Notes: generated from the sequence alone by a model not told the origin. 64,000 nt of DNA from Candidatus Bipolaricaulota bacterium (GCA_021735245.1 JAIPHJ010000002.1:26017-90016); one strand, 5' to 3'. Shown: positions 3,275 to 35,196, counted from the stretch's first letter. Made by a program: numbers and translations.

Positions 3275-3621
3275 TAATATAACGCCCCTTGTTGAAAGTT
3301 TACCCTACTATCAAATATATTCACCTTTATGTCAACCTATAAAAGTGTTTATTTGAGATAAAATAATGTGGGTTATCAAAAAATTCTGTTGCCTTATTTA
3401 AAATTGAAGTTAACTACACAAACTTAACGTCCATTTCTTGTGCCTACCATCGGTCATACTTATCGACAAGAGTCAAGAGTTTCACCTCTAGTTCTATTAA
3501 AACCGGATACATCAGCCAGCATCGATTGGAATGTCCGGTAAACTTAAAACACAGTTAGATACTACCTTGTGTACCAAAGATTGTCATCTAAAGCAGAGGA
3601 GCGTTCACAAAAATATCTTTT

Positions 3622-4598: not shown

Positions 4599-4740
4599 AA
4601 GTTCCTACCTCCATAAACCGATGATTATTTAAGATAAGATAACCAAGCTTGTATCAACTAAGATACCGTTGTTTGTTCATTAAATAAAGTTTCTTAAGAA
4701 ACTAATGTTTTACACTCCCTCCTCCATCGCACACACCTCT

Positions 4741-4852
4741 TTTATCGCAAATAAAAACCCAGATCATCCAACCCATGTTATCCGACAACTTGTGTCCAAC
4801 CTAAAAGAACAGCACTCAGTTGGTTCAGAGACCGATTAGGAGCGTCGATTTA
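4741..4852 (+). repeat. Island intergenic repeat, copy 3 (blocks A, B and C, best preserved)
   Basis: TTTATCGCAAATAAAAAC (4741-4758), ACCCATGTTATCC (4771-4783), AGTTGGTTCAGAGACCGATTAGGAGCGTCGATTTA (4818-4852). Confidence 0.65.
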
Positions 4853-6753: not shown

Positions 6754-6773
6754 ACAGAATTACTGTAACAAAC

Positions 6774-6792
6774 TTTTATCGTGAATAAAAAC
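6774..6792 (+). repeat. Island repeat block A, variant copy
   Basis: TTTTATCGTGAATAAAAAC versus TTTTATCGCAAATAAAAAC at 4740-4758. Lies between two unrelated minus-strand genes. Confidence 0.5.
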
Positions 6793-9311: not shown

Positions 9312-10235
9312 ATGGCGGGGGAGTCCAAGGGCAAATCAAAATTCTACATCATCGTGGTATCACTACTCGCAATCATCCTAGTAGCTGGCCTAGGGTTTGT
9401 CGGCTACCAGATCAAGTCTGCCCTCGATAGAGAAATATACGGTACCCCTAGAGGAGAAGTTGGAGAAAAAGATCCTTCTGATTTGGGCCTAGATTACGAG
9501 ACGATAGAGTTTACCAGCAGCAATACCACCGAGGATGACTTAACCATACATGGTTGGTTCATCGATGGAAGCTCTGATAACTGTATCATACTAGCCCCGG
9601 GTAAGGGCCAGAGCCGCTGGAAGCTTTTCGACTACATACCTTTTCTCCACGAGGCGGGATACGACCTACTGATGTTTGACCCTCAGGGTACGGGCAAAAG
9701 CGAGGGAAAGAAATGGGCGTTCGGCTACTTCGAGAGCCGGGATATAATTAACGGGGTTAAGTACTTAGAAGAGAACCATCAGGTAGAAAGTATTGGAATA
9801 CTGGGGAGATCTGCAGGAGCAACTGCAGGGATAATAGCAGCGTTGGAAAGCGAAAAAGTCGATGCCGTGGTCGCCGATAGCCCCTTCGCAAGCATCAAGC
9901 TCGCCTCCGAGAGTTACGGGGGGTATGAGAATAATCCCCTGTTCGACATTCTGTTTCCACTTTACGGTTTTGGGGCAAACTGGATGCTTGATACGGATAT
10001 AGTAGGGAAGACCGACCTCACCGAGAGGATCTCTAACCTCGAAACTCCCGTGTTCTTCATCCACGGTGATGATGACCAAGCTCTCTATCCGAAAAATTCC
10101 AAGGTGCTATACGAAAACAAACAGGGACAGAAGGAGCTATGGACGCCAGAAGGTATCGGTCATGTAGGTGGTTTCGAGGAGAGGCCTGAGGAGTACAAGA
10201 AAAAGGTTCTCAACTTTTTTGAACAGCAGCTGTAG
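9312..10235 (+). CDS. Membrane-anchored alpha/beta hydrolase (S9/BAAT-like)
   Basis: 307-aa ORF with an N-terminal TM. Nucleophile elbow GRSAGA, then ADSPF and GHVGG (Ser-Asp-His order). Confidence 0.8.
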   Translation: MAGESKGKSKFYIIVVSLLAIILVAGLGFVGYQIKSALDREIYGTPRGEVGEKDPSDLGLDYETIEFTSSNTTEDDLTIHGWFIDGSSDNCIILAPGKGQSRWKLFDYIPFLHEAGYDLLMFDPQGTGKSEGKKWAFGYFESRDIINGVKYLEENHQVESIGILGRSAGATAGIIAALESEKVDAVVADSPFASIKLASESYGGYENNPLFDILFPLYGFGANWMLDTDIVGKTDLTERISNLETPVFFIHGDDDQALYPKNSKVLYENKQGQKELWTPEGIGHVGGFEERPEEYKKKVLNFFEQQL

Positions 10236-10392
10236 TTTCTATCGTCACCTACCTTCGAAGGCAATGGTTGGGGACTCTTTTTTGTAGAGGGCAAGCTATC
10301 AAACTGGTAGTTCATTACATCATCAATTATAGGTCTCGATGAATTTAACTCATCCGGAACCAAACTACACGAAGCGGTTATTTATAGATCGT

Positions 10393-11025
10393 TTAAGGAC
10401 TTTCGTAAACTGAGGAGTCAGTAACCATCTCCACATAGTCCACTTCGTTATTACTTGTAATTGAGTCCGCTTCGAAGTCCCACTCTTCTCCCGGATCAAG
10501 AAAGGTAATTGCATCCATAGCAGTACCGACTCGTTCATCGTCAGCATTGAACAGTTTTCCTTCCACTATCGCAGCAGCAAGGGTTTCATTGCTTATGTTC
10601 TTAGCAGTGCCTGTGATAAGGATGTCACCGTCATCGTCTTCACCCCGTTGCCAGTCGAGGATTTCTACTCTCTTTTCATCATCTCCGGATGAGACCGAAA
10701 TGGTTTTTGTTGAGGAGTCTTAGGCTCCATCGTTGTCGGTAACGGTTAGTTCTACCGTAAAGTCGCCCGAGCTAGAGTATACATGATCAGTTTTCTCCCC
10801 TGAGCTGGTCTCACCGTCTCCGAAGTCCCAGCTGTAGCTAACAATGTTACCGTCCGGGTCCGCAGAATTAGTAGCGTCAAAGGACACCCCTAACGGTGCG
10901 TCTCCACTTGTAGGATCAGCGGTAAAGTTTGCATTAGGTGATTGGTTGAATAGACCACAACCGGATATGAAAAGCGCAAGTGAAATTATGAGCGTTAGTA
11001 GTAGAGCCAACTTACTTTTTCTCAT
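10393..11025 (-). pseudogene. PKD plus FxLYD-like lipoprotein gene interrupted by an in-frame TAA (10720-10722)
   Basis: Lipobox signal MRKSKLALLLTLIISLALFISGC and a PKD unit end at TDNDGA-TAA. The same frame continues DSSTKTISVSSGDDEKRVEILDWQ..GKLFNADDERVG..DPGEEWDFEA to TAA 10393-10395. Confidence 0.7.
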
Positions 11026-11174: not shown

Positions 11175-12016
11175 TCATCCCACCACTTCAACCTGATACG
11201 GGTGATAAAGGATTATCTCCGGCCCGTCATACTCCTGCAATTCCCCTGTAACCTCGATCGTCTTCCCGTTGTAGTCCCTTACCGGTTCTATACCTCTTCT
11301 TATGAAGTACTTCTTGTCGTCGCTAAATATAACGGCAGTGAAGTCGGTCTCATAATCATTACTCGAGTTTAAGAAGATGATATCCCCGGAGTCGTAAGTG
11401 CCTATTACTCTATACCGAACCGTAACTACCTCGCCCAAGTATTCATCCATCTTCTCCTCGATCTCCTTGGCCGATAAGACCGGAGGCCCCTCACAGTAAG
11501 CCTGCCACAGACCCCGGCAGTTTTCCCTCGCTTCCCTTTCGAGTTCGAGGAAGTAATCGGCGTACTTTACGTTCGGAGGTAGGGTGTAAACACGGGCATA
11601 GCCTTCTCGTAGTAGCTCTGCGTTGATGTTGATCCATTCGCCGTCCTGTTTTACGTATACATAAGCCAGATGGCGGTTATACTGATCTTTCTTCTGGACA
11701 TCGTACTCCAGCTTAACCTTCTTACCTTCGACCAACTGCTGGTTGAACTTGGAGGCTTTAACGCCGAAGTATTCTACTGGCTTTTCCGGATGGTGGGTTT
11801 CTGGCGTATCAAGGTTAAGATAGCGAACTTCCATTCCATTGGCAATTATACTGTATCGCCGTCGTAGACTTCGATTACGGTTGAGGTGGCGGTTGCTTTG
11901 GTGTGGTTGGGCTTGTCAGCTGCTATGGCAACGGTCGTTAGTGATAAACCAAAGACAGCTGCAAGGAGGAGACAGACTATGGATTTGAGACTTTGTGATA
12001 TGTGAATAACGCACAT
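11175..12016 (-). pseudogene. Secreted thermonuclease (SNase-like) split by a 1-nt frameshift near 11846
   Basis: A 56-codon signal-peptide fragment (ATG 12016) ends VIEVYDGDTV-TAA (11846-11848). The -1 frame continues IIANGMEVRYLNLDTPE...REGYARVY, the canonical SNase DGDT/DTPE order. Confidence 0.75.
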
Positions 12017-12097: not shown

Positions 12098-12826
12098 TCA
12101 ATCTGCCAAGTATCCCTCAGCCTTTTCCATTGCTTTCTCGTGGTTGTCTTGGGCGATACTGTGTAATTCTTCCGTTAGTTCATCCACATCAGTATCTTCT
12201 TTTAAGTTGAGTCCATTAAGCGAGCGTTTGATGTTTTTATAGATGATCTTTAGTTCACCATCATCGAACTCTCTTTTATCCCAAGCGGCAATTAAGGAAA
12301 ACCTGAGTGAGTCTTCATAGGCGTCTTCTTTTCGACGCATTTTTGCCATTTTCAACCTCACTCGATGGCTGCTCAAACCTTCCTTGTTAAGCTCCATGCA
12401 GGCTTTGTTGAAATAACTCCATGCCTTGTCATTTTCGCCTTCCTTTAGGGCATCTTCGCCTAACTTCCGCAACTTTCTACCCTTCTTCTTTTGAACGATT
12501 TTTAGCTGCCTGTAGTACCAAGGCGGTGGATCATGACCTTCTATGGATGCCTGTTTCTCCGCCGCTTTGATAAGTTCCCTTAACAACTTCTCGGCCTCGT
12601 CGTACTTCTCTTCCCTTTTTAGCTGTTTTACCTCTTCAACGTACTGGGTGAAGTGCTTTCCTTTGTAGCTTCCTGCCTTTTCGGCTCGCTCCCTCCGTTT
12701 TTTATACTCTTCAACGTCGATTTTTTCACCTGTGCTGGAACCGGTTTGATCAACTTCTATTTTTTTTCTGCGGCTCCTACTACCACCGAAGATACTTGAC
12801 AGAAGTTCTATAAAAAATTCCCACAT
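12098..12826 (-). CDS. Hypothetical Lys/Glu-rich helical protein
   Basis: 242-aa ORF with no recognisable motif. Co-oriented with, and 37 nt downstream of, 12863-13996. Confidence 0.5.
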   Translation of the reverse strand: MWEFFIELLSSIFGGSRSRRKKIEVDQTGSSTGEKIDVEEYKKRRERAEKAGSYKGKHFTQYVEEVKQLKREEKYDEAEKLLRELIKAAEKQASIEGHDPPPWYYRQLKIVQKKKGRKLRKLGEDALKEGENDKAWSYFNKACMELNKEGLSSHRVRLKMAKMRRKEDAYEDSLRFSLIAAWDKREFDDGELKIIYKNIKRSLNGLNLKEDTDVDELTEELHSIAQDNHEKAMEKAEGYLAD

Positions 12827-12862: not shown

Positions 12863-13996
12863 CTACTCGCTCCAGAGTTTGTCCATGTATTCACTGGTGT
12901 TTGTGTCACCAACAACAATATTTTCCATGGCTTTCTTCTTTCTCGTTAAGTAGTACTGGGCATCATCATATATCCAATCATATAGGAGCTGTACTTGGTC
13001 TCTGCCTACTATGTATAGATCGTAGGTCTCCTTTCCTCCGAATGCTTTATCGCTCACGAATTTTTTACGTACATCGATACGTTCTACACCGCAACCTTCA
13101 ACAATGATGTCTTTTAGGTCGTTCAGCACACCATACTTTCCTGTAATTATGACGTTGTAATGACCATTTTCCTTGCCCCTTCCCACGTGGCCATCACCAT
13201 CAATAACACCCCGGACGAAGTGGTTTACAGTTGGACTATCTTTTATCATAGAAGATACTTCATTCCAGTCTTTAGATCGTCTTGGTACGTACTGCTCTAT
13301 ACCTTTTATTATGTCTATTTGACAGGTAGAGTATCGATACAATGGTCTCTGTCCTGTTCTGTAATCAATATGTAGGTCTTTATCTGACTTCAGACAACTC
13401 CTAAAGTTTTCCGCCAATTCTCTATCGGTAACTCGAAATTCAAGTTCGTTGTCTTCGACATGTATTGTGCCATCTGTCGCAAATAAGCCTAATGCGTAGG
13501 CAGATCTTTCACTTTCTAAGTCATCGAAAGTATTTATATCAATGCTGTAATAATCTGAAGTCCCGGTGCCTCCATGAATTACTTCATGTTTGCGCAAACT
13601 ATCTGTACCATAATGACCCTCTAAACCTACCTCATTTGCCCACCTTTTAACTAACTTCCAAACCCAGCTACGATTTATATTTTGATCATGAGTGGTACTC
13701 GTAAACAACCAGTCAGATTGCCTTGCATCTACTTTATTGAAATACCATTGAAGTGCTTTATTTGATCTGTCATCAATCGGTATAGTGTCGGCCCACCCTT
13801 CCTTGAATATCCCGGATTTGACTTCTCCATTATCTTTCCGCACATCCTTGACTTTCAACTCTAGGAGGTGGCTTATCCTTCGAGGTAAGTTGTAACCGAG
13901 TACTACCATTAGGTAATTTCGGGGTATCTCGTTTTCTCGTACGTACGACTTGATTTTTTCGTACTCTTCTTCGGTGAATTTATCGACCCGTTCCAT
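12863..13996 (-). CDS. Degenerate tyrosine-recombinase N-terminal part fused to a double-motif LAGLIDADG endonuclease domain
   Basis: Residues 1-140 parallel the 191-aa recombinase at 16451-17026 (LELKVKDVRKDNGE vs LSLKVKDVRKENGE; GLEGHYGTDSLRK vs GLEGQYATHSLRK). Then come ALGLFATDGTI and FVRGVIDGDGHV. No C-terminal catalytic Tyr region. Confidence 0.75.
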   Translation of the reverse strand: MERVDKFTEEEYEKIKSYVRENEIPRNYLMVVLGYNLPRRISHLLELKVKDVRKDNGEVKSGIFKEGWADTIPIDDRSNKALQWYFNKVDARQSDWLFTSTTHDQNINRSWVWKLVKRWANEVGLEGHYGTDSLRKHEVIHGGTGTSDYYSIDINTFDDLESERSAYALGLFATDGTIHVEDNELEFRVTDRELAENFRSCLKSDKDLHIDYRTGQRPLYRYSTCQIDIIKGIEQYVPRRSKDWNEVSSMIKDSPTVNHFVRGVIDGDGHVGRGKENGHYNVIITGKYGVLNDLKDIIVEGCGVERIDVRKKFVSDKAFGGKETYDLYIVGRDQVQLLYDWIYDDAQYYLTRKKKAMENIVVGDTNTSEYMDKLWSE

Positions 13997-14093
13997 AACA
14001 TGCCTCCGTTCTTTCTAAGATGCCGGAATGGCCGTTCATTCTACATATTATTTATCCATAATCTGAATTATTTTACAACCAGTCTTGAGGAGT

Positions 14094-14342
14094 TTATTCC
14101 GGAGAACATGTGACCTCGGTTCCATCCCCCGAATAGCTACAACTAGCTATTGTTTCACCATTTCCCTGCAGATAACCAACATCTCCGCTGTTATTCCAGA
14201 TAGCGCTGCCAGAATCCCAGTATAACTCATAGTCGGCATCTTGGCCGCAACCAGTGTCTTTATTGGGCTTGTCCTCCGAACCAGTATAAACTCTCACCTT
14301 TTCACCGTCTTTCAACTCGAAGTCATCGGGAAAGATCAACAA
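14094..14342 (-). CDS. Lamin-tail-domain-like C-terminal half; probably a 5'-truncated remnant
   Basis: FPDDFELKDGEKVRVYTGS...LYWDSGSAIWNNSGDVGYLQ matches the second half of the LTD pattern. The frame is closed by TAA just upstream, and only a TTG start is available. Confidence 0.35.
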   Translation of the reverse strand: MLIFPDDFELKDGEKVRVYTGSEDKPNKDTGCGQDADYELYWDSGSAIWNNSGDVGYLQGNGETIASCSYSGDGTEVTCSPE

Positions 14343-16450: not shown

Positions 16451-17026
16451 TTATAAATTCAATTCGTCAACGGCATCGTCCACGTCATCGTACGTGAGCC
16501 CACAGTAATCGAGAGTTTGCCGCCGGGAACTATGATTAAATTTGGACTGCAAGATATACGGATCAACACCCTGCCTGATAGCATGGTATCCAAACGTCTT
16601 GCGTAACGAGTGAGTGGCGTATTGACCTTCTAAACCCAACCTGTCGGTTAGATCCTTAATAATTTGGTCGCACCTCTGGCGGCTTATCTGGCCTGCATAC
16701 GTGGTGAAGAGGTAGTCTTCCTGCTCTTTTGATGGGTTGTCTTCGAAGAACAGGTCCATCGCCTCCCTTATAGCATCGTTAATCTTGTGCCGGTTATTCT
16801 TCCCCGTCTTCTGTTCCCTGAGTCGGATATGTGTCCGGTATTCGCCGTTCTCCTTTCTAACGTCCTTGACCTTTAAGCTCAGTATGTCACCTATCCTGAG
16901 AGCCGAGTTGAGACCTATCGTTATCCAGAGTAAGTCTCTGAATCTATTGTTCGCTTTCAAGATACTTTTCATATCGTCGATCTTCTTTCTATCACGAATT
17001 GGATCTACTTCGTTCATAAGATACAC
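16451..17026 (-). CDS. Small tyrosine recombinase (catalytic domain only)
   Basis: 191-aa ORF with ALRIGD (Arg I), HSLRKT (HxxR), NHSS and a C-terminal Tyr region (TLDYCGLTY). Confidence 0.8.
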   Translation of the reverse strand: MYLMNEVDPIRDRKKIDDMKSILKANNRFRDLLWITIGLNSALRIGDILSLKVKDVRKENGEYRTHIRLREQKTGKNNRHKINDAIREAMDLFFEDNPSKEQEDYLFTTYAGQISRQRCDQIIKDLTDRLGLEGQYATHSLRKTFGYHAIRQGVDPYILQSKFNHSSRRQTLDYCGLTYDDVDDAVDELNL

Positions 17027-18813: not shown

Positions 18814-18833
18814 TTTTTATCGCAAATAAAAAC
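18814..18833 (+). repeat. Island repeat block A copy
   Basis: TTTTTATCGCAAATAAAAAC, nearly identical to 4740-4758. Confidence 0.7.
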
Positions 18834-19152: not shown

Positions 19153-19174
19153 GTTTTTTATTTGCGATAAAAAC
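19153..19174 (-). repeat. Island repeat block A, inverted copy
   Basis: GTTTTTTATTTGCGATAAAAAC is the reverse complement of block A. With 18814-18833 it brackets about 320 bp. Confidence 0.7.
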
Positions 19175-19193: not shown

Positions 19194-20330
19194 CTATTTC
19201 ACCCATACACTATACCACTTAGTGCTACTTGCTCCATCGTCATCGTAAACAGTCAGGGTAACGTCATAAACTCCGCTATCGTAGAAAGTATGTGTGGTAA
19301 TAGCTCCTGACCCACCGCTCCCATCATCATAATCCCAACTGTATGAAACTATTGATCCGTCAGGATCGCTAGAATCCGTGGCATCAAAAGTTACTTCAAG
19401 CGGGGGGTAGCCACTCGATGGATCGTAAGAAAATTCTGCAGTAGGACTTTGGTTGCTGGCAGTAGAAACATCGATGGTTTCACTGGCCGTATCATTAGAC
19501 CCTTCATCATCTGTTACTGTTAACTGTACTGTATAGCTTCCAGAGCTGTCATAAGTATGGTTAACCGTTACCCCTGAACCAGTAGTTCCATCGCCGAAAT
19601 CCCAATTGTAACTATCTATGCTGCCATCTGGGTCATTAGCACCACTAGCGTCAAACGAGACCTCAAGTGGGGCTTCTCCACTCGTTGGGCTAGCTGTGAA
19701 GCTAGAAGACGGGGGCTGATTAGGTTCAGATGAGACAGAGATGGTTTCGCTGGTAGAATCAGTCCCTCCATCATTATCCGTAACTGTTAGTTGCACGTTG
19801 TACGTCCCGGAGCTGGTGAAGGTGTAGGTTCCACTGACCCCTGAACCAGTAGACCCATCGTCAAAGTCCCACTCGTAGCTAGTTATAGTGCCATCACTGT
19901 CTTCAGCACTGGAGGCATCAAATGTTACTTCGAGGGGTGCCTCGCCGCTCGTAGGATTGGCACTAAAGCTTGCTGTTGGAGCTTGGTTGGAAGATGTGAC
20001 TGAAATATTTTTTGTCGTGTCATTTGTAGCACCACCATCATCGGTCACCGTCAACTCTACCGTATAGTCTCCGGCGCTATCGAAGGTATGATTAACAGTC
20101 TCTCCTGTTCCCGTGGAACCGTCATCGAAACCCCAGTCATAGCTTGCTATTCTTCCATCAGGATCAGAAGAACCAGAAGCATCAAAAGTTGATTCTAGTG
20201 GAGCTTCTCCGCTGGTAGGATTAGCATCATAACCAGCGTTAGGGGGTTGGTTAGTAGGCCCGCAGCCAGACAAGAAAAGAGCAAGTGAAATGAGGAGAAA
20301 AGCAATAAGGGTTAGCTTGCCCTTTCGCAT
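19194..20330 (-). CDS. Lipoprotein with four tandem PKD domains
   Basis: Signal and lipobox MRKGKLTLIAFLLISLALFLSGC. Four units of A.F...PTSGEAPLEV.FDAS.S.DPDG.I.SY.WDF.DGS.G.G....H.....G.Y.V.LTVTDD.G. Confidence 0.85.
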   Translation of the reverse strand: MRKGKLTLIAFLLISLALFLSGCGPTNQPPNAGYDANPTSGEAPLESTFDASGSSDPDGRIASYDWGFDDGSTGTGETVNHTFDSAGDYTVELTVTDDGGATNDTTKNISVTSSNQAPTASFSANPTSGEAPLEVTFDASSAEDSDGTITSYEWDFDDGSTGSGVSGTYTFTSSGTYNVQLTVTDNDGGTDSTSETISVSSEPNQPPSSSFTASPTSGEAPLEVSFDASGANDPDGSIDSYNWDFGDGTTGSGVTVNHTYDSSGSYTVQLTVTDDEGSNDTASETIDVSTASNQSPTAEFSYDPSSGYPPLEVTFDATDSSDPDGSIVSYSWDYDDGSGGSGAITTHTFYDSGVYDVTLTVYDDDGASSTKWYSVWVK

Positions 20331-24538: not shown

Positions 24539-25519
24539 TTATAAGTGATCCATAGGTGAAGTCTTCTTGGTTGCCTCCTTCAATCGTCGTCCGCTCATGT
24601 GCACGTAACGCATCGAAGTCTTCAATTGTTCGTGACCCATCATCTGCTGTAGCGAGTAAACATCTAACCCGTTTTTAACAGCCATCGTCGCAGCAGTATG
24701 CCGTAATACATGCGGTGAGACTTTTGTATCCTCGAGACCGGCTCTTTTTTGTAGTCGATCGATAATACGAGATAAATTCCTCTTTTTAATTTGGTGGCCG
24801 TTAAGGTCTATGAAAATTGTTTTGGTGTTAATTTCCGCCTCAATATCATTCCTAACCTCAGTCCAGTATCCAAGCCACTCACTTGGTAATTCTCCGAAAA
24901 AAACCCTTCGATCCTTAGCCCCTTTTCCGTTTACCTTTAGAGAGTTGTCATCTAGGTTGAGGTCTTCAAGTTTTGCTGTCCTTACTTCTTCGGACCTAAG
25001 CCCCACATCTAGCATTAGTAGTATAATTGTCCGGTTTCTGATTCCCGACCAACGATCTAAACGGTCCCTTGTCACTTTAACTAACTTTTTCATTTGGTCC
25101 TCATCCAGCACGTAGGGGTACTTGTTCGGGGTCTTGGGCTCTTTAATGTCGTCCGTTGGAGCTTTCTCGATTGCATCCTTGTCTACCAACCAGTTGAAAA
25201 AAGCCCGAAGGACTCTATAGCGAATGGCGATCGTCGTGATCTTTATTCCGTTGTCCAACAAATACTTCATGTAGTCACGAACTACGTCTGCGGTTATGTC
25301 CTCGACGAGCATGTCATTGTCGAGGAAGTCCATAAAGTACCCGAGTATTTCTTTGTATTGGCCTATTGTAGCAGAGGACAACCCATCCAGCTCTTTGTAG
25401 TTAAGGTAGGACTCCACTACAGTGTTAATTCTCGCTTCTCCATTTCTATTCGTCAGATTAGGATTGACGTCGTCTTCTCCATCCTGCAGAAAGTCGTACG
25501 TCGGATTTTCTCTACGCAT
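24539..25519 (-). CDS. int: Tyrosine integrase (XerC/D-phage type)
   Basis: 326-aa ORF. SAM-like N-domain, GLRSEE (Arg I), HVLRHT (HxxR), GHEQLKTSMRYVH (His/Tyr). Its start is 78 nt from the tRNA-like sequence. Confidence 0.9.
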   Translation of the reverse strand: MRRENPTYDFLQDGEDDVNPNLTNRNGEARINTVVESYLNYKELDGLSSATIGQYKEILGYFMDFLDNDMLVEDITADVVRDYMKYLLDNGIKITTIAIRYRVLRAFFNWLVDKDAIEKAPTDDIKEPKTPNKYPYVLDEDQMKKLVKVTRDRLDRWSGIRNRTIILLMLDVGLRSEEVRTAKLEDLNLDDNSLKVNGKGAKDRRVFFGELPSEWLGYWTEVRNDIEAEINTKTIFIDLNGHQIKKRNLSRIIDRLQKRAGLEDTKVSPHVLRHTAATMAVKNGLDVYSLQQMMGHEQLKTSMRYVHMSGRRLKEATKKTSPMDHL

Positions 25520-25596
25520 TTTCTAAATCCATTGAATGCAATCGGATCCTTAAAAATAGGAATCCGGGCTATTCTGTATTATATATACATAATCGT

Positions 25597-25671
25597 CCGG
25601 TTTAACCTCAGTGGTTGAAGAGCACCGGACTTCGGATCCGGGTGTTGGGGGTTCGAATCCTCCCGGGCGTA
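25597..25671 (+). tRNA. tRNA-Arg(UCG)-like sequence with a non-pairing 5' acceptor strand; probable 3' tRNA fragment or att site
   Basis: Canonical anticodon arm CCGGA-CTTCGGA-TCCGG, T arm GGGGG-TTCGAAT-CCTCC and 3' acceptor CGGGCGT-A. The 5' strand CCGGTTT cannot pair, and position 10-25 of the D stem is mismatched. Confidence 0.6.
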
Positions 25672-25817
25672 CTTTCATTCCTTACTATTCTTACCCCCAA
25701 TTTATTTTCTAACTTGCCAAAATTCTCATTAAATGATAGTATCAAACTGGCTGAGCTTGAGTTTGGTCTACCGGGTGCGGTTGAATCCCAAGGGAAAATA
25801 AGCTAGGTGGTTGTTTC

Positions 25818-33405: not shown

Positions 33406-35196
33406 ATGGCCGAAACCTACAAAAGAGACGAGCTGGAAGATAGATTCAAGTGGAACCTGGAAAGTATCTACGAATCCGACGATGAGTGGGAAGAAGAGTT
33501 CGGAGACGTCGAGAAACTGCTGACGGAGTTCGACCGATATCAGGGGAAAGTGGTGGAAAGTGGGGAGACCCTGCTGGATGTCCTGGATTTGCGGGAGAAG
33601 GTCTTCAGAAAAGTTGACAGTCTCTTTGCCTATGCCAGAATGAGAAGCGACGAAGACACCAGAAACCAGACCTATCAGGCCATGAATTCTCGAGCCCGAG
33701 GTCTACACTCCAGCGCGGAGTCGGCCGCCAGTTTTATCGAACCCGAAATCCAATCCTCTTCGAAGGAAGAAATCGAGGAACTAATTGTCGGTAATTCGGA
33801 GCTGGAAACGTACCGTCATTACCTGGAAGACGTGCTCAGGCTGAAACCTCACACGAGGAGTGCCGAGGTGGAGGGACTCGTGGCCGATCTCGAGGAGGTA
33901 CTGGCCGCCCCCGGAGAAATTTACAATTACCTGACCAATGCCGACCTGGAGTTTCCGGAAGTGGACGATCCGGACGGGGGGAAGGTCAAAATAACGCTGA
34001 GCAATTTTGTGAACCTGTTGAAGAGGGACGAAAGGGAGTTCAGACAGGAAGTCTACGAAGAATTCTTCGACCGATTCGAGGAGCTGAGCAACACGGTCTC
34101 CGTCTCCTACGAGAACAGCGTCAAGACGGACAATAAACTGGCAGGGATCAGGAACTACGATTCGGCGCGAGAGAAGTCCATGGATCAAAACAACATTCCG
34201 GTAGAGGTTTACGATAATCTTGTAAGAGTGGTTGAAGACAACCTCGACCTGCTTCACAAACATCTCCGGCTAAAGAGGGAAGCTTTGGGGAGCGAGGAGC
34301 TCAGAATGTGGGACGTCTATGCTTCCATGGCGGAACCCGAGATCCCGGACATCCCTTACGAGGAAGCGAAAGACTACGTGCTGGAGGCTGTCGAAGTTCT
34401 GGGAGACGATTACCGGGACCAGATAGAGCAGGGATTCCGGTCTCGCTGGATCGACGTGTACGAGACCCCGGCCAAGCGTGCCGGAGCTTACAGCGGCGGT
34501 GCTTACGATACCCAGCCGTTTATCCTCATGAACTACGAGGGGGATATCTCTTCTCTCTACACGCTGGCTCACGAGCTCGGCCATTCCATGCATTCCAAGC
34601 TAACCTCCGAACACCAGCCCTACGTCTACGGGGACTACTCGATATTCGTCGCGGAAGTCGCCAGTACTCTGCACGAAGCCCTGCTCACGGAGCACCTGCT
34701 GGAAAGCGAGTCTGACCCGGACTTTAGACTTCACCTGCTGGATCACTTTCTGGAATCGTTCCGGACTACACTCTTCCGTCAGACCCTGTTCGCTCACTTC
34801 GAGCACGAAGTTCACGAAAAGGTCAGCGCGGGAGAAGGACTTACTTTCGATAGGTTGAACGAGCTGTTCGGGACCCTGAAAAACGAGTATTACGCACCCG
34901 CGGTGGTCGACGATAGAATTGAATTCGAATGGATGAGAATCCCTCATTTCTACAGGGCTTATTACGTCTATCAGTACAGTACGGGCGTTAGCGCTTCTCT
35001 TGCCCTGTCAGAAAAGGTCATGGAGGAAGGAGAATCGGCCGTGGATCGGTACCTGGATCTCCTGAAGACCGGCTCGAGCAAGTATCCTCTCGAATCTCTG
35101 CGGGATGCGGGAGTCGACATGAGAGAACCGGGACCCGTCGAGCGGGCCCTGTCGACCTACGAGAAGTATCTCGACCGGATGGAGGAACTTATTTAG
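33406..35196 (+). CDS. pepF: Oligoendopeptidase F (M3B)
   Basis: 596-aa ORF with the HELGHSMH zinc motif and typical M3B length and architecture. Confidence 0.9.
   Translation: MAETYKRDELEDRFKWNLESIYESDDEWEEEFGDVEKLLTEFDRYQGKVVESGETLLDVLDLREKVFRKVDSLFAYARMRSDEDTRNQTYQAMNSRARGLHSSAESAASFIEPEIQSSSKEEIEELIVGNSELETYRHYLEDVLRLKPHTRSAEVEGLVADLEEVLAAPGEIYNYLTNADLEFPEVDDPDGGKVKITLSNFVNLLKRDEREFRQEVYEEFFDRFEELSNTVSVSYENSVKTDNKLAGIRNYDSAREKSMDQNNIPVEVYDNLVRVVEDNLDLLHKHLRLKREALGSEELRMWDVYASMAEPEIPDIPYEEAKDYVLEAVEVLGDDYRDQIEQGFRSRWIDVYETPAKRAGAYSGGAYDTQPFILMNYEGDISSLYTLAHELGHSMHSKLTSEHQPYVYGDYSIFVAEVASTLHEALLTEHLLESESDPDFRLHLLDHFLESFRTTLFRQTLFAHFEHEVHEKVSAGEGLTFDRLNELFGTLKNEYYAPAVVDDRIEFEWMRIPHFYRAYYVYQYSTGVSASLALSEKVMEEGESAVDRYLDLLKTGSSKYPLESLRDAGVDMREPGPVERALSTYEKYLDRMEELI

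Follow-up and report, generated by a model that had tools for sequence, protein, structure and literature searches.

What kind of protein is encoded where a tyrosine recombinase and a homing endonuclease appear to share a single reading frame? The stretch concerned, referred to here as the window, comprises 64,000 nucleotides from a Candidatus Bipolaricaulota bacterium (GCA_021735245.1 JAIPHJ010000002.1:26017-90016), and the gene lies at coordinates 12863..13996 on the minus strand. An earlier note had described it as a tyrosine-recombinase remnant fused in frame to a complete double-motif LAGLIDADG domain, and had left open whether a homing endonuclease gene (HEG) had invaded a recombinase gene or a chimeric enzyme uses a recombinase scaffold to target a nuclease. 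BLASTP, Pfam and PHROGs all bear out the architecture, a truncated tyrosine-recombinase domain and a complete double-motif LAGLIDADG domain within one open reading frame (ORF), and the predicted product is thus one bacterial protein consisting of the recombination-incompetent front three-quarters of a recombinase and an apparently intact LAGLIDADG domain. The features of the gene, and of an intact recombinase outside it that serves as a comparator, are as follows.

12863..13996, minus strand: the whole fusion ORF, 377 amino acids plus stop, with an ATG start.
14003..14007, minus strand: a GGAGG ribosome-binding site 6 nt 5' of the ATG, read directly from the sequence.
13589..13996, minus strand: residues 1-136, a partial, catalytically dismantled tyrosine-recombinase catalytic domain (pCAT), ending in ...GTDSLRK (box II, His to Asp).
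13631..13672, minus strand: residues 109-122, RSWVWKLVKRWANE, a helix in the AlphaFold2 (AF2) model, aligned to Cre helix J.
13547..13588, minus strand: residues 137-150, the short linker HEVIHGGTGTSDYY, poorly conserved and with the lowest predicted local distance difference test (pLDDT) values of the model, 58-75.
12914..13546, minus strand: residues 151-361, a monomeric double-motif LAGLIDADG endonuclease domain (PF14528, phrog_4645, Foldseek).
13463..13501, minus strand: LAGLIDADG motif 1, AYALGLFATDGTI, with the predicted metal-binding Asp175.
13184..13222, minus strand: LAGLIDADG motif 2, HFVRGVIDGDGHV, with the predicted metal-binding Asp268.
16451..17026, minus strand: the comparator, an intact 191-aa catalytic-domain-only tyrosine recombinase (PF00589, E 2e-24).

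Pfam assigns residues 7-136 of the fusion to Phage_integrase (PF00589; positions 3-134 of the 172-position profile, score 53.6 bits, cutoff 27.1, E 3e-14) and two further stretches to LAGLIDADG_3 (PF14528; 37.6 bits, cutoff 22.5). PHROGs similarly give the integrase family phrog_216 over residues 8-136 (E 1e-17) and phrog_4645, annotated 'endonuclease', over residues 147-361 (E 8e-27), and the recombinase part matches the XerA structure 4a8e. An AF2 model built with a 52-sequence alignment has a pLDDT of 92.5 and a predicted template-modelling score of 0.71, with only the linker at residues 137-150 uncertain, and was used in place of a discarded model from a 2-sequence alignment (pLDDT 38). 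In this model residues 163-362 form two alpha-beta-beta-alpha-beta-beta-alpha units, the pseudo-dimeric LAGLIDADG fold, and Foldseek matches the C-terminal half to the TliVMA-intein endonuclease, I-Tsp061I, PI-SceI, I-DmoI, I-SceI and I-OnuI with a probability of 1.00, as well as to phage 'endonuclease' models in BFVD and to WhiA (3hyi, 3hyj). The fusion shares with the TliVMA endonuclease (7qsu), PI-SceI (1ef0/1lws), I-Tsp061I (2dch) and I-DmoI a monomeric two-motif organization (Foldseek E 1e-7 to 1e-4), but has neither the Hint domain nor the intron context of these intein and archaeal-intron enzymes and is only 14-19% identical to them. Asp175 and Asp268 are separated by 93 residues, and both are conserved in all 40 aligned family members. 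Profile searches and structure prediction, two of the checks proposed in the earlier note, thus both support the LAGLIDADG assignment.

The gene is neither an assembly product nor confined to one genome. The locus is 100% identical in two further assemblies, over 7.4 kb (L003) and 2.9 kb (L004), from runs SRR12088347 and SRR12088346, and an independent sample, SRR11308167, encodes a homologue, P0002, with the same domain order and the same junction. A chimera of two genes arising by misassembly or frameshift is therefore effectively ruled out by an ORF present in three assemblies of the organism and in a diverged homologue elsewhere; separation of the two parts into different ORFs, which the earlier note gave as grounds for abandoning its reading, is not seen in any of these sequences.

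The architecture is nevertheless extremely rare. HMMER with a two-sequence profile, exhaustive over 1.84 billion representatives of ~15 billion proteins, recovered P0002 (376 aa, 61% identical) as the sole other full-length match, so that a search for homologues with the same fusion yields exactly one, with an identical junction. The remaining matches among the top 150 each cover one part alone: those to the LAGLIDADG part begin at query residues ~101-157 and extend to ~361, and those to the N-terminal part reach ~residue 148 and are mostly small tyrosine recombinases of ~182-212 aa. No further fusions were found in 185,579 species genomes, in JGI metagenome contigs or IMG/VR, or in 50,697 phage and 72,556 plasmid records, where all relatives are LAGLIDADG-only or recombinase-only. 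Both fusion sequences come from uncultured organisms, and the flanks of P0002 differ from those in the window, with a different gene downstream.

The N-terminal half is derived from a small recombinase that has lost its chemistry and kept much of its core. BLASTP aligns the fusion to the 191-aa recombinase at 16451..17026, in which R, K, HxxR, H and Y are all present, with 35% identity over 142 aa (E 1e-19), and the alignment ends exactly at ...SLRK. The close kinship that had been proposed between these two genes holds insofar as they belong to the same family, but the neighbour is not the closest relative, since small recombinases from elsewhere are up to 39.5% identical to the fusion N-domain. 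We aligned the two fusion proteins with 12 small recombinases, all of which contain Arg-I, Lys-beta, Arg-II, His-III and the Tyr; the box II His is present in 11 of them and is Tyr in P0093. The alignment has 32 family-conserved columns, and both fusion proteins match the family in 15 of them, including most of the conserved hydrophobic core positions together with PRN, LF, R109, G124, G130, R135 and K136. The active site fares differently. Arg-I is retained as Arg40 in the window protein and is Gln in P0002; the Asp following Arg-I is His in the window protein and Lys in P0002; the Lys-beta hairpin is shortened in the window protein, with Lys65 kept, and P0002 lacks the Lys altogether; and the box II His has become Asp132 in the window protein and Gly in P0002, the alignment confirming the change from THSLRK to TDSLRK that had been read from the window. 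His/Trp-III and the Tyr are absent from both, as the last ~50 recombinase residues are missing and the domain stops at PF00589 profile position 134 of 172, within helix K. The fusion therefore has the homology and fold of PF00589 without the complete catalytic set R-K-H-R-H/W-Y and, judged on its residues, its N-domain cannot be a recombinase. It otherwise resembles the small recombinases (~185-200 aa, phrog_216; the gene at 16451..17026, P0007 and P0008), with 31-40% identity over ~130 residues and the same N-terminal start and core.

What has been kept is suggestive of DNA contact. The best-conserved segment of the N-terminal half, INRSWVWKLV(K/N)RW, is the same in the two fusion proteins (P0001 and P0002) at all but one of its 13 positions. 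In an alignment to Cre, whose catalytic positions were checked, fusion residues 109-117 correspond to Cre 258-266 in helix J, and Arg40, Asp132 and Arg135 correspond to R173, H289 and R292. Helix J of Cre, with R259, is a base-specific reader of the major groove (PMC7438526). The N-domain is also basic, with an isoelectric point (pI) of 8.75 in the window protein and 9.55 in P0002, and stays so against an acidic nuclease domain (pI 5.0-5.3) and acidic host proteins (median pI 5.1). Its pLDDT in the AF2 model is mostly 89-98.

Comparison of the window gene with P0002 indicates that purifying selection is maintaining both halves of the fusion. Amino acid identity is 56% in the N-terminal half (136 codons) and 64.5% in the C-terminal half, and falls to 48% in the linker region (alignment positions 138-160); there are no stops and no frameshifts. 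The proportion of synonymous differences (pS) is 0.90 in the N-terminal and 0.73 in the C-terminal half, both saturated, and that of non-synonymous differences (pN) is 0.29 and 0.20; the synonymous sites being saturated, pN and pS are reported here instead of a formal dN/dS. A neutral remnant at such divergence would be unrecognisable. Because the N-terminal half is constrained while pS is saturated, the recombinase-derived part must be functional in some sense, and the term 'remnant' used for it earlier is misleading: the half is under purifying selection, and its structural core is kept while the catalytic residues go.

Relatives of the nuclease suggest what that function may be. Apart from P0002, all of these relatives are free-standing endonucleases, and phages often encode them. 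The nearest LAGLIDADG relatives, P0003-P0006, are 30-35% identical (24-35% across the matches), and they and the wider family have one to three N-terminal modules of helix-turn-helix (HTH) type or, in a phage example, an AP2 domain at the C-terminus. The domains of the 38 nearest relatives include HTH_7, HTH_23, HTH_28, HTH_38, Sigma70_r4, I-TevI_DNA-bd and AP2; Phage_integrase is found in none of the 38. This agrees with the general plan of free-standing HEGs, in which a DNA-binding domain occupies one terminus and the nuclease the other (bioRxiv 10.1101/2023.03.23.533998). The fusion accordingly shares with the free-standing phrog_4645 endonucleases (P0003-P0006, and crAss-like and Bacillus phage proteins annotated 'endonuclease / mobile intron protein') a homologous LAGLIDADG domain, an order of accessory module, short linker and nuclease, and both conserved catalytic Asp residues, and differs from them in that its module is a 136-residue partial tyrosine-recombinase domain and not one of HTH, AP2 or I-TevI type. 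We considered and rejected a common origin for the recombinase domain and the HTH leader of P0003-P0006, as hhalign joins them through one helix of 13 columns at a probability of 10%; the two kinds of module therefore correspond by analogy and not by homology. A partial recombinase domain has apparently not been seen before as an accessory type in this LAGLIDADG family. One phage relative (L007, IMGVR_UViG_3300042569_003232), a free-standing nuclease gene at 9995-10867 on the strand opposite to its neighbours and adjoined by an HNH-like gene, has a C-terminal AP2-like DNA-binding domain and is an illustration of free accessory-domain swapping in the family.

The reading to which we would give about an even chance is that of a chimeric endonuclease of homing type, targeted or anchored by a tyrosine-recombinase domain that is both partial and inactivated. 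The ancestral plan would have been a modular free-standing endonuclease, with a nuclease, a short linker and one or more small DNA-binding modules extending the target site, in which the usual HTH module was exchanged for ~136 residues from the N-terminus of a small tyrosine recombinase made up of a catalytic domain only. The acquired piece would perform no recombination, as the Tyr-bearing C-terminal helices are gone and other active-site residues are eroding, and would contribute its fold-forming core, its net positive charge and its Cre-type major-groove helix. The dead recombinase domain would first dock on a recombinase-type half-site, and the tethered LAGLIDADG domain would then bind and cut nearby DNA via Asp175 and Asp268. 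Of the two explanations offered in the earlier note, the chimeric enzyme on a recombinase scaffold fits best, given that relatives carry HTH DNA-binding modules at the same position; the targeting itself, like nuclease activity, DNA binding by the N-domain and the existence of any target site, is something that we infer from sequence. A more specific version, which we consider unlikely though worth stating, is that the dead domain still reads a core-type recombinase site, for instance an attachment (att), dif-like or inverton half-site, and delivers a LAGLIDADG double-strand break beside it.

There is a precedent for a dead recombinase used in this manner. In TnsF of Tn6022, a tyrosine-recombinase domain that has been inactivated takes part in selecting the target (Faure et al. 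2023, PMC10293859), and in these Tn6022-like Tn7 transposons, as would be the case here, such a domain has been put to new use in bringing a different DNA-processing machine to its site. TnsF itself contains zinc fingers and two core-binding domains and works with TniQ and TnsABC, whereas the fusion has no core-binding domain, starts directly at catalytic-domain homology, and has as its effector a covalently fused nuclease. No Tn7 components were found in a Pfam scan of the neighbouring proteins between window coordinates 536 and 29899, which are SNase, lamin-tail-domain (LTD), PKD and integrase proteins and proteins without a domain match.

Several considerations weigh against the reading as a chimeric endonuclease. 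The family has two known members, and the evidence for selection comes from one pairwise comparison with saturated dS. A target site, a presence/absence polymorphism and conserved synteny were all sought and none was found, with two loci known. The high pLDDT of the N-domain partly reflects the full-length recombinases in the alignment and so is no proof that the truncated domain can fold by itself. A recombinase catalytic domain lacking helix K and everything beyond it may be a poor DNA binder, and the partial catalytic domain (CAT) of TnsF is argued to have lost DNA binding and to contact TniQ (PMC10293859). Finally, an LTD fragment and a split SNase gene near the fusion show that some genes in this neighbourhood are decayed.

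The TnsF case also provides the main rival, which we regard as improbable: that the partial recombinase domain is a protein-protein module, recruiting or recruited by an intact small tyrosine recombinase or some other partner. The partial CAT of TnsF, without helix K, with its proposed loss of DNA binding and its contact with TniQ (PMC10293859), is a direct model for such a role; the fusion domain is likewise truncated within helix K, and an intact recombinase of the same family is encoded 2.4 kb away on the same strand. That neighbour, however, is just 35% identical and not the closest relative, and its equivalent helix, SRQRCDQIIKDL, is very different. The C-terminal helices that in tyrosine recombinases such as Cre and XerD mediate protomer-protomer contacts are missing from the fusion, and the domain that remains is basic and occupies the slot in which relatives have DNA-binding HTH modules. 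Nor is a conserved partner gene seen: the fusion is followed 36 bp downstream by a 242-aa gene (12098..12826), a possible operon partner, which has no informative family match and is not found beside P0002, where the downstream gene is a different one.

Ranked below this, and improbable too, is a historical accident in which a LAGLIDADG gene landed in, or recombined with, a recombinase gene just past the box II codons, leaving an N-terminal part that is dispensable and a recombinase 5' region that is now just the source of a promoter, ribosome-binding site and start codon. The junction directly follows the motif that is best conserved among these recombinases, and conserved coding sequence of this kind is a typical target of homing endonucleases; the catalytic residues of the recombinase are decaying, and the decayed LTD and SNase genes nearby are consistent with such a history. 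The strong constraint on the N-terminal half argues otherwise, with 56% identity retained across saturated synonymous sites and no stops in 136 codons, as does the selective retention of core residues. The nearest LAGLIDADG relatives, moreover, have their own starts and N-terminal modules. A recombinase 3' remnant is also missing, as tblastn with six recombinase C-termini finds no recombinase C-terminus downstream of the fusion and only the intact recombinases at 16454-16633 and 24557-24730, and a recent HEG invasion with a surviving 3' fragment was rejected for want of any such fragment downstream or elsewhere near the gene. The uninterrupted recombinase allele that the earlier note had proposed to look for has no close representative among ~15 billion proteins, where the matches range from 31 to 40% identity and the best is 39.5% identical. 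With no 3' fragment, no close allele, and a junction identical in both members, the other of the two explanations first offered, that an HEG invaded a recombinase gene, finds no support as a current or recent state.

Lower again, and quite improbable, is a sequence-specific DNA-binding protein that does not cleave, a regulator or site marker in the manner of WhiA in which both domains act as scaffolds. WhiA (3hyi, 3hyj) is among the structural matches and resembles the fusion in combining a LAGLIDADG fold with a separate DNA-binding module (3hyi), and the nuclease domain of the fusion is unusually acidic, with a pI of ~5 against a median of 9.2 for the 38 relatives. But in WhiA it is the nuclease fold that is degenerate and has lost the metal-binding Asp residues, whereas in the fusion degeneration has affected the partner domain and left the acidic residues of the nuclease intact; each of the two metal-binding Asp residues is present in both fusion proteins and in 40 of 40 relatives. 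The acidity matches that of the host proteome and need not signal a lost DNA-directed function; it suggests that the domain has long resided in this lineage and did not come recently from a phage. The reading of the gene as an intein, intact or degenerate, in a recombinase gene, or else as an assembly or frameshift artefact, is effectively refuted, even with the intein-associated endonucleases TliVMA and PI-SceI among the nearest solved structures to the C-terminal half, since a Pfam scan of the fusion at E<=1 finds neither Hint nor intein families, the junction is followed by His137 and not by Cys, Ser or Thr, the C-terminus is ...KLWSE and stop with no terminal His-Asn and no resumption of an extein (so that the earlier note was right to call this no ordinary intein), and the ORF recurs in three assemblies and in P0002.

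The window as a whole is bacterial, encoding GGDEF/PAS proteins, a maltose ABC transporter and a ROK regulator. Its GC content is 43% in positions 1-25600 and 47% in the rest, and 40.7% in the fusion gene, whose neighbours include hypothetical genes, PKD lipoproteins, an LTD fragment and an apparently split SNase gene. A scan for promoters and terminators gave match counts no higher than in shuffled sequence. Directly upstream of the fusion, at 14094-14342 on the minus strand, an 82-aa ORF covers just the C-terminal half of the lamin-tail profile (positions 51-108 of 109), with no upstream room for the rest of the domain; it is a gene fragment, which hints at a past rearrangement at this spot. 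On the other side, the SNase gene at 11175-12016 (minus strand) appears divided between a 56-aa ORF (11846..12016), which has a signal peptide and the N-terminal strand '...VIEVYDGDTV', and a 219-aa ORF in another frame (11175..11834), and is either a frameshifted pseudogene or the product of a sequencing error. The longer of these ORFs matches the PADLOC candidate model 'SNc+LTD'; the fusion protein itself matches no PADLOC defence family at E<=0.01.

Two paralogous genes for PKD-repeat lipoproteins with near-identical signal peptides are present on the minus strand at 10720-11025 and 19194-20330, the former of which breaks off after a single PKD unit (101 aa), and a 26-nt repeat is common to positions 10724, 19231 and 19765. 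A different repeat, the 19-mer TTTTTATTTGCGATAAAAA, occurs in five copies with <=3 mismatches, where 0.05 would be expected by chance, at 18814-18832, 19155-19173, 3346-3364, 4739-4757 and 6773-6791, all within the left, low-GC portion of the window; at least four of the five are outside listed ORFs. Two perfect copies (18814-18832 and 19155-19173) form an inverted repeat around 322 nt, just downstream of the PKD gene at 19194..20330, and the other three lie 20-160 nt 5' of minus-strand gene starts. The repeat may serve as an operator or promoter element; alternatively, it may be a recombinase or inverton site.

At 24539..25519 on the minus strand, a full-length tyrosine integrase bearing SAM-like N-domains adjoins a tRNA-Arg(TCG) gene within region 24539-25672; the tRNA is atypical, at 68 nt with an Rfam score of only 34.9 bits, and GC content increases here from ~43% to ~47%. 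An att repeat of the tRNA-Arg was not found in the window. The left 25 kb, including the fusion gene, may be an integrated island. Farther to the right, PepF (33406..35196) is 84-90% identical to proteins from Candidatus Bipolaricaulota metagenome-assembled genomes and also, across its whole length, shares ~60% identity with many PepF proteins of haloarchaea; taken with the acidic median pI of 5.1, this kinship suggests a halophilic lifestyle and possible inter-domain gene exchange.

Exchange of small DNA-binding modules is already known among free-standing homing endonucleases. As far as we have searched, a gutted tyrosine-recombinase catalytic domain has not previously been described as an HEG module. 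Its significance is tempered by its extreme rarity, with two sequences among ~15 billion proteins. If the domain does direct the nuclease, it would join TnsF of Tn6022 as a second and independent example in which a tyrosine recombinase, once inactivated, serves as a targeting device, and would mean that the catalytic domain alone, without a core-binding domain and C-terminal helices, can be a DNA address, providing a natural template for recombinase-meganuclease hybrids. And if it still reads recombination sites, the protein would be a natural 'recombinase-addressed meganuclease', used either for selfish homing into such sites or as a weapon against rival integrative elements.

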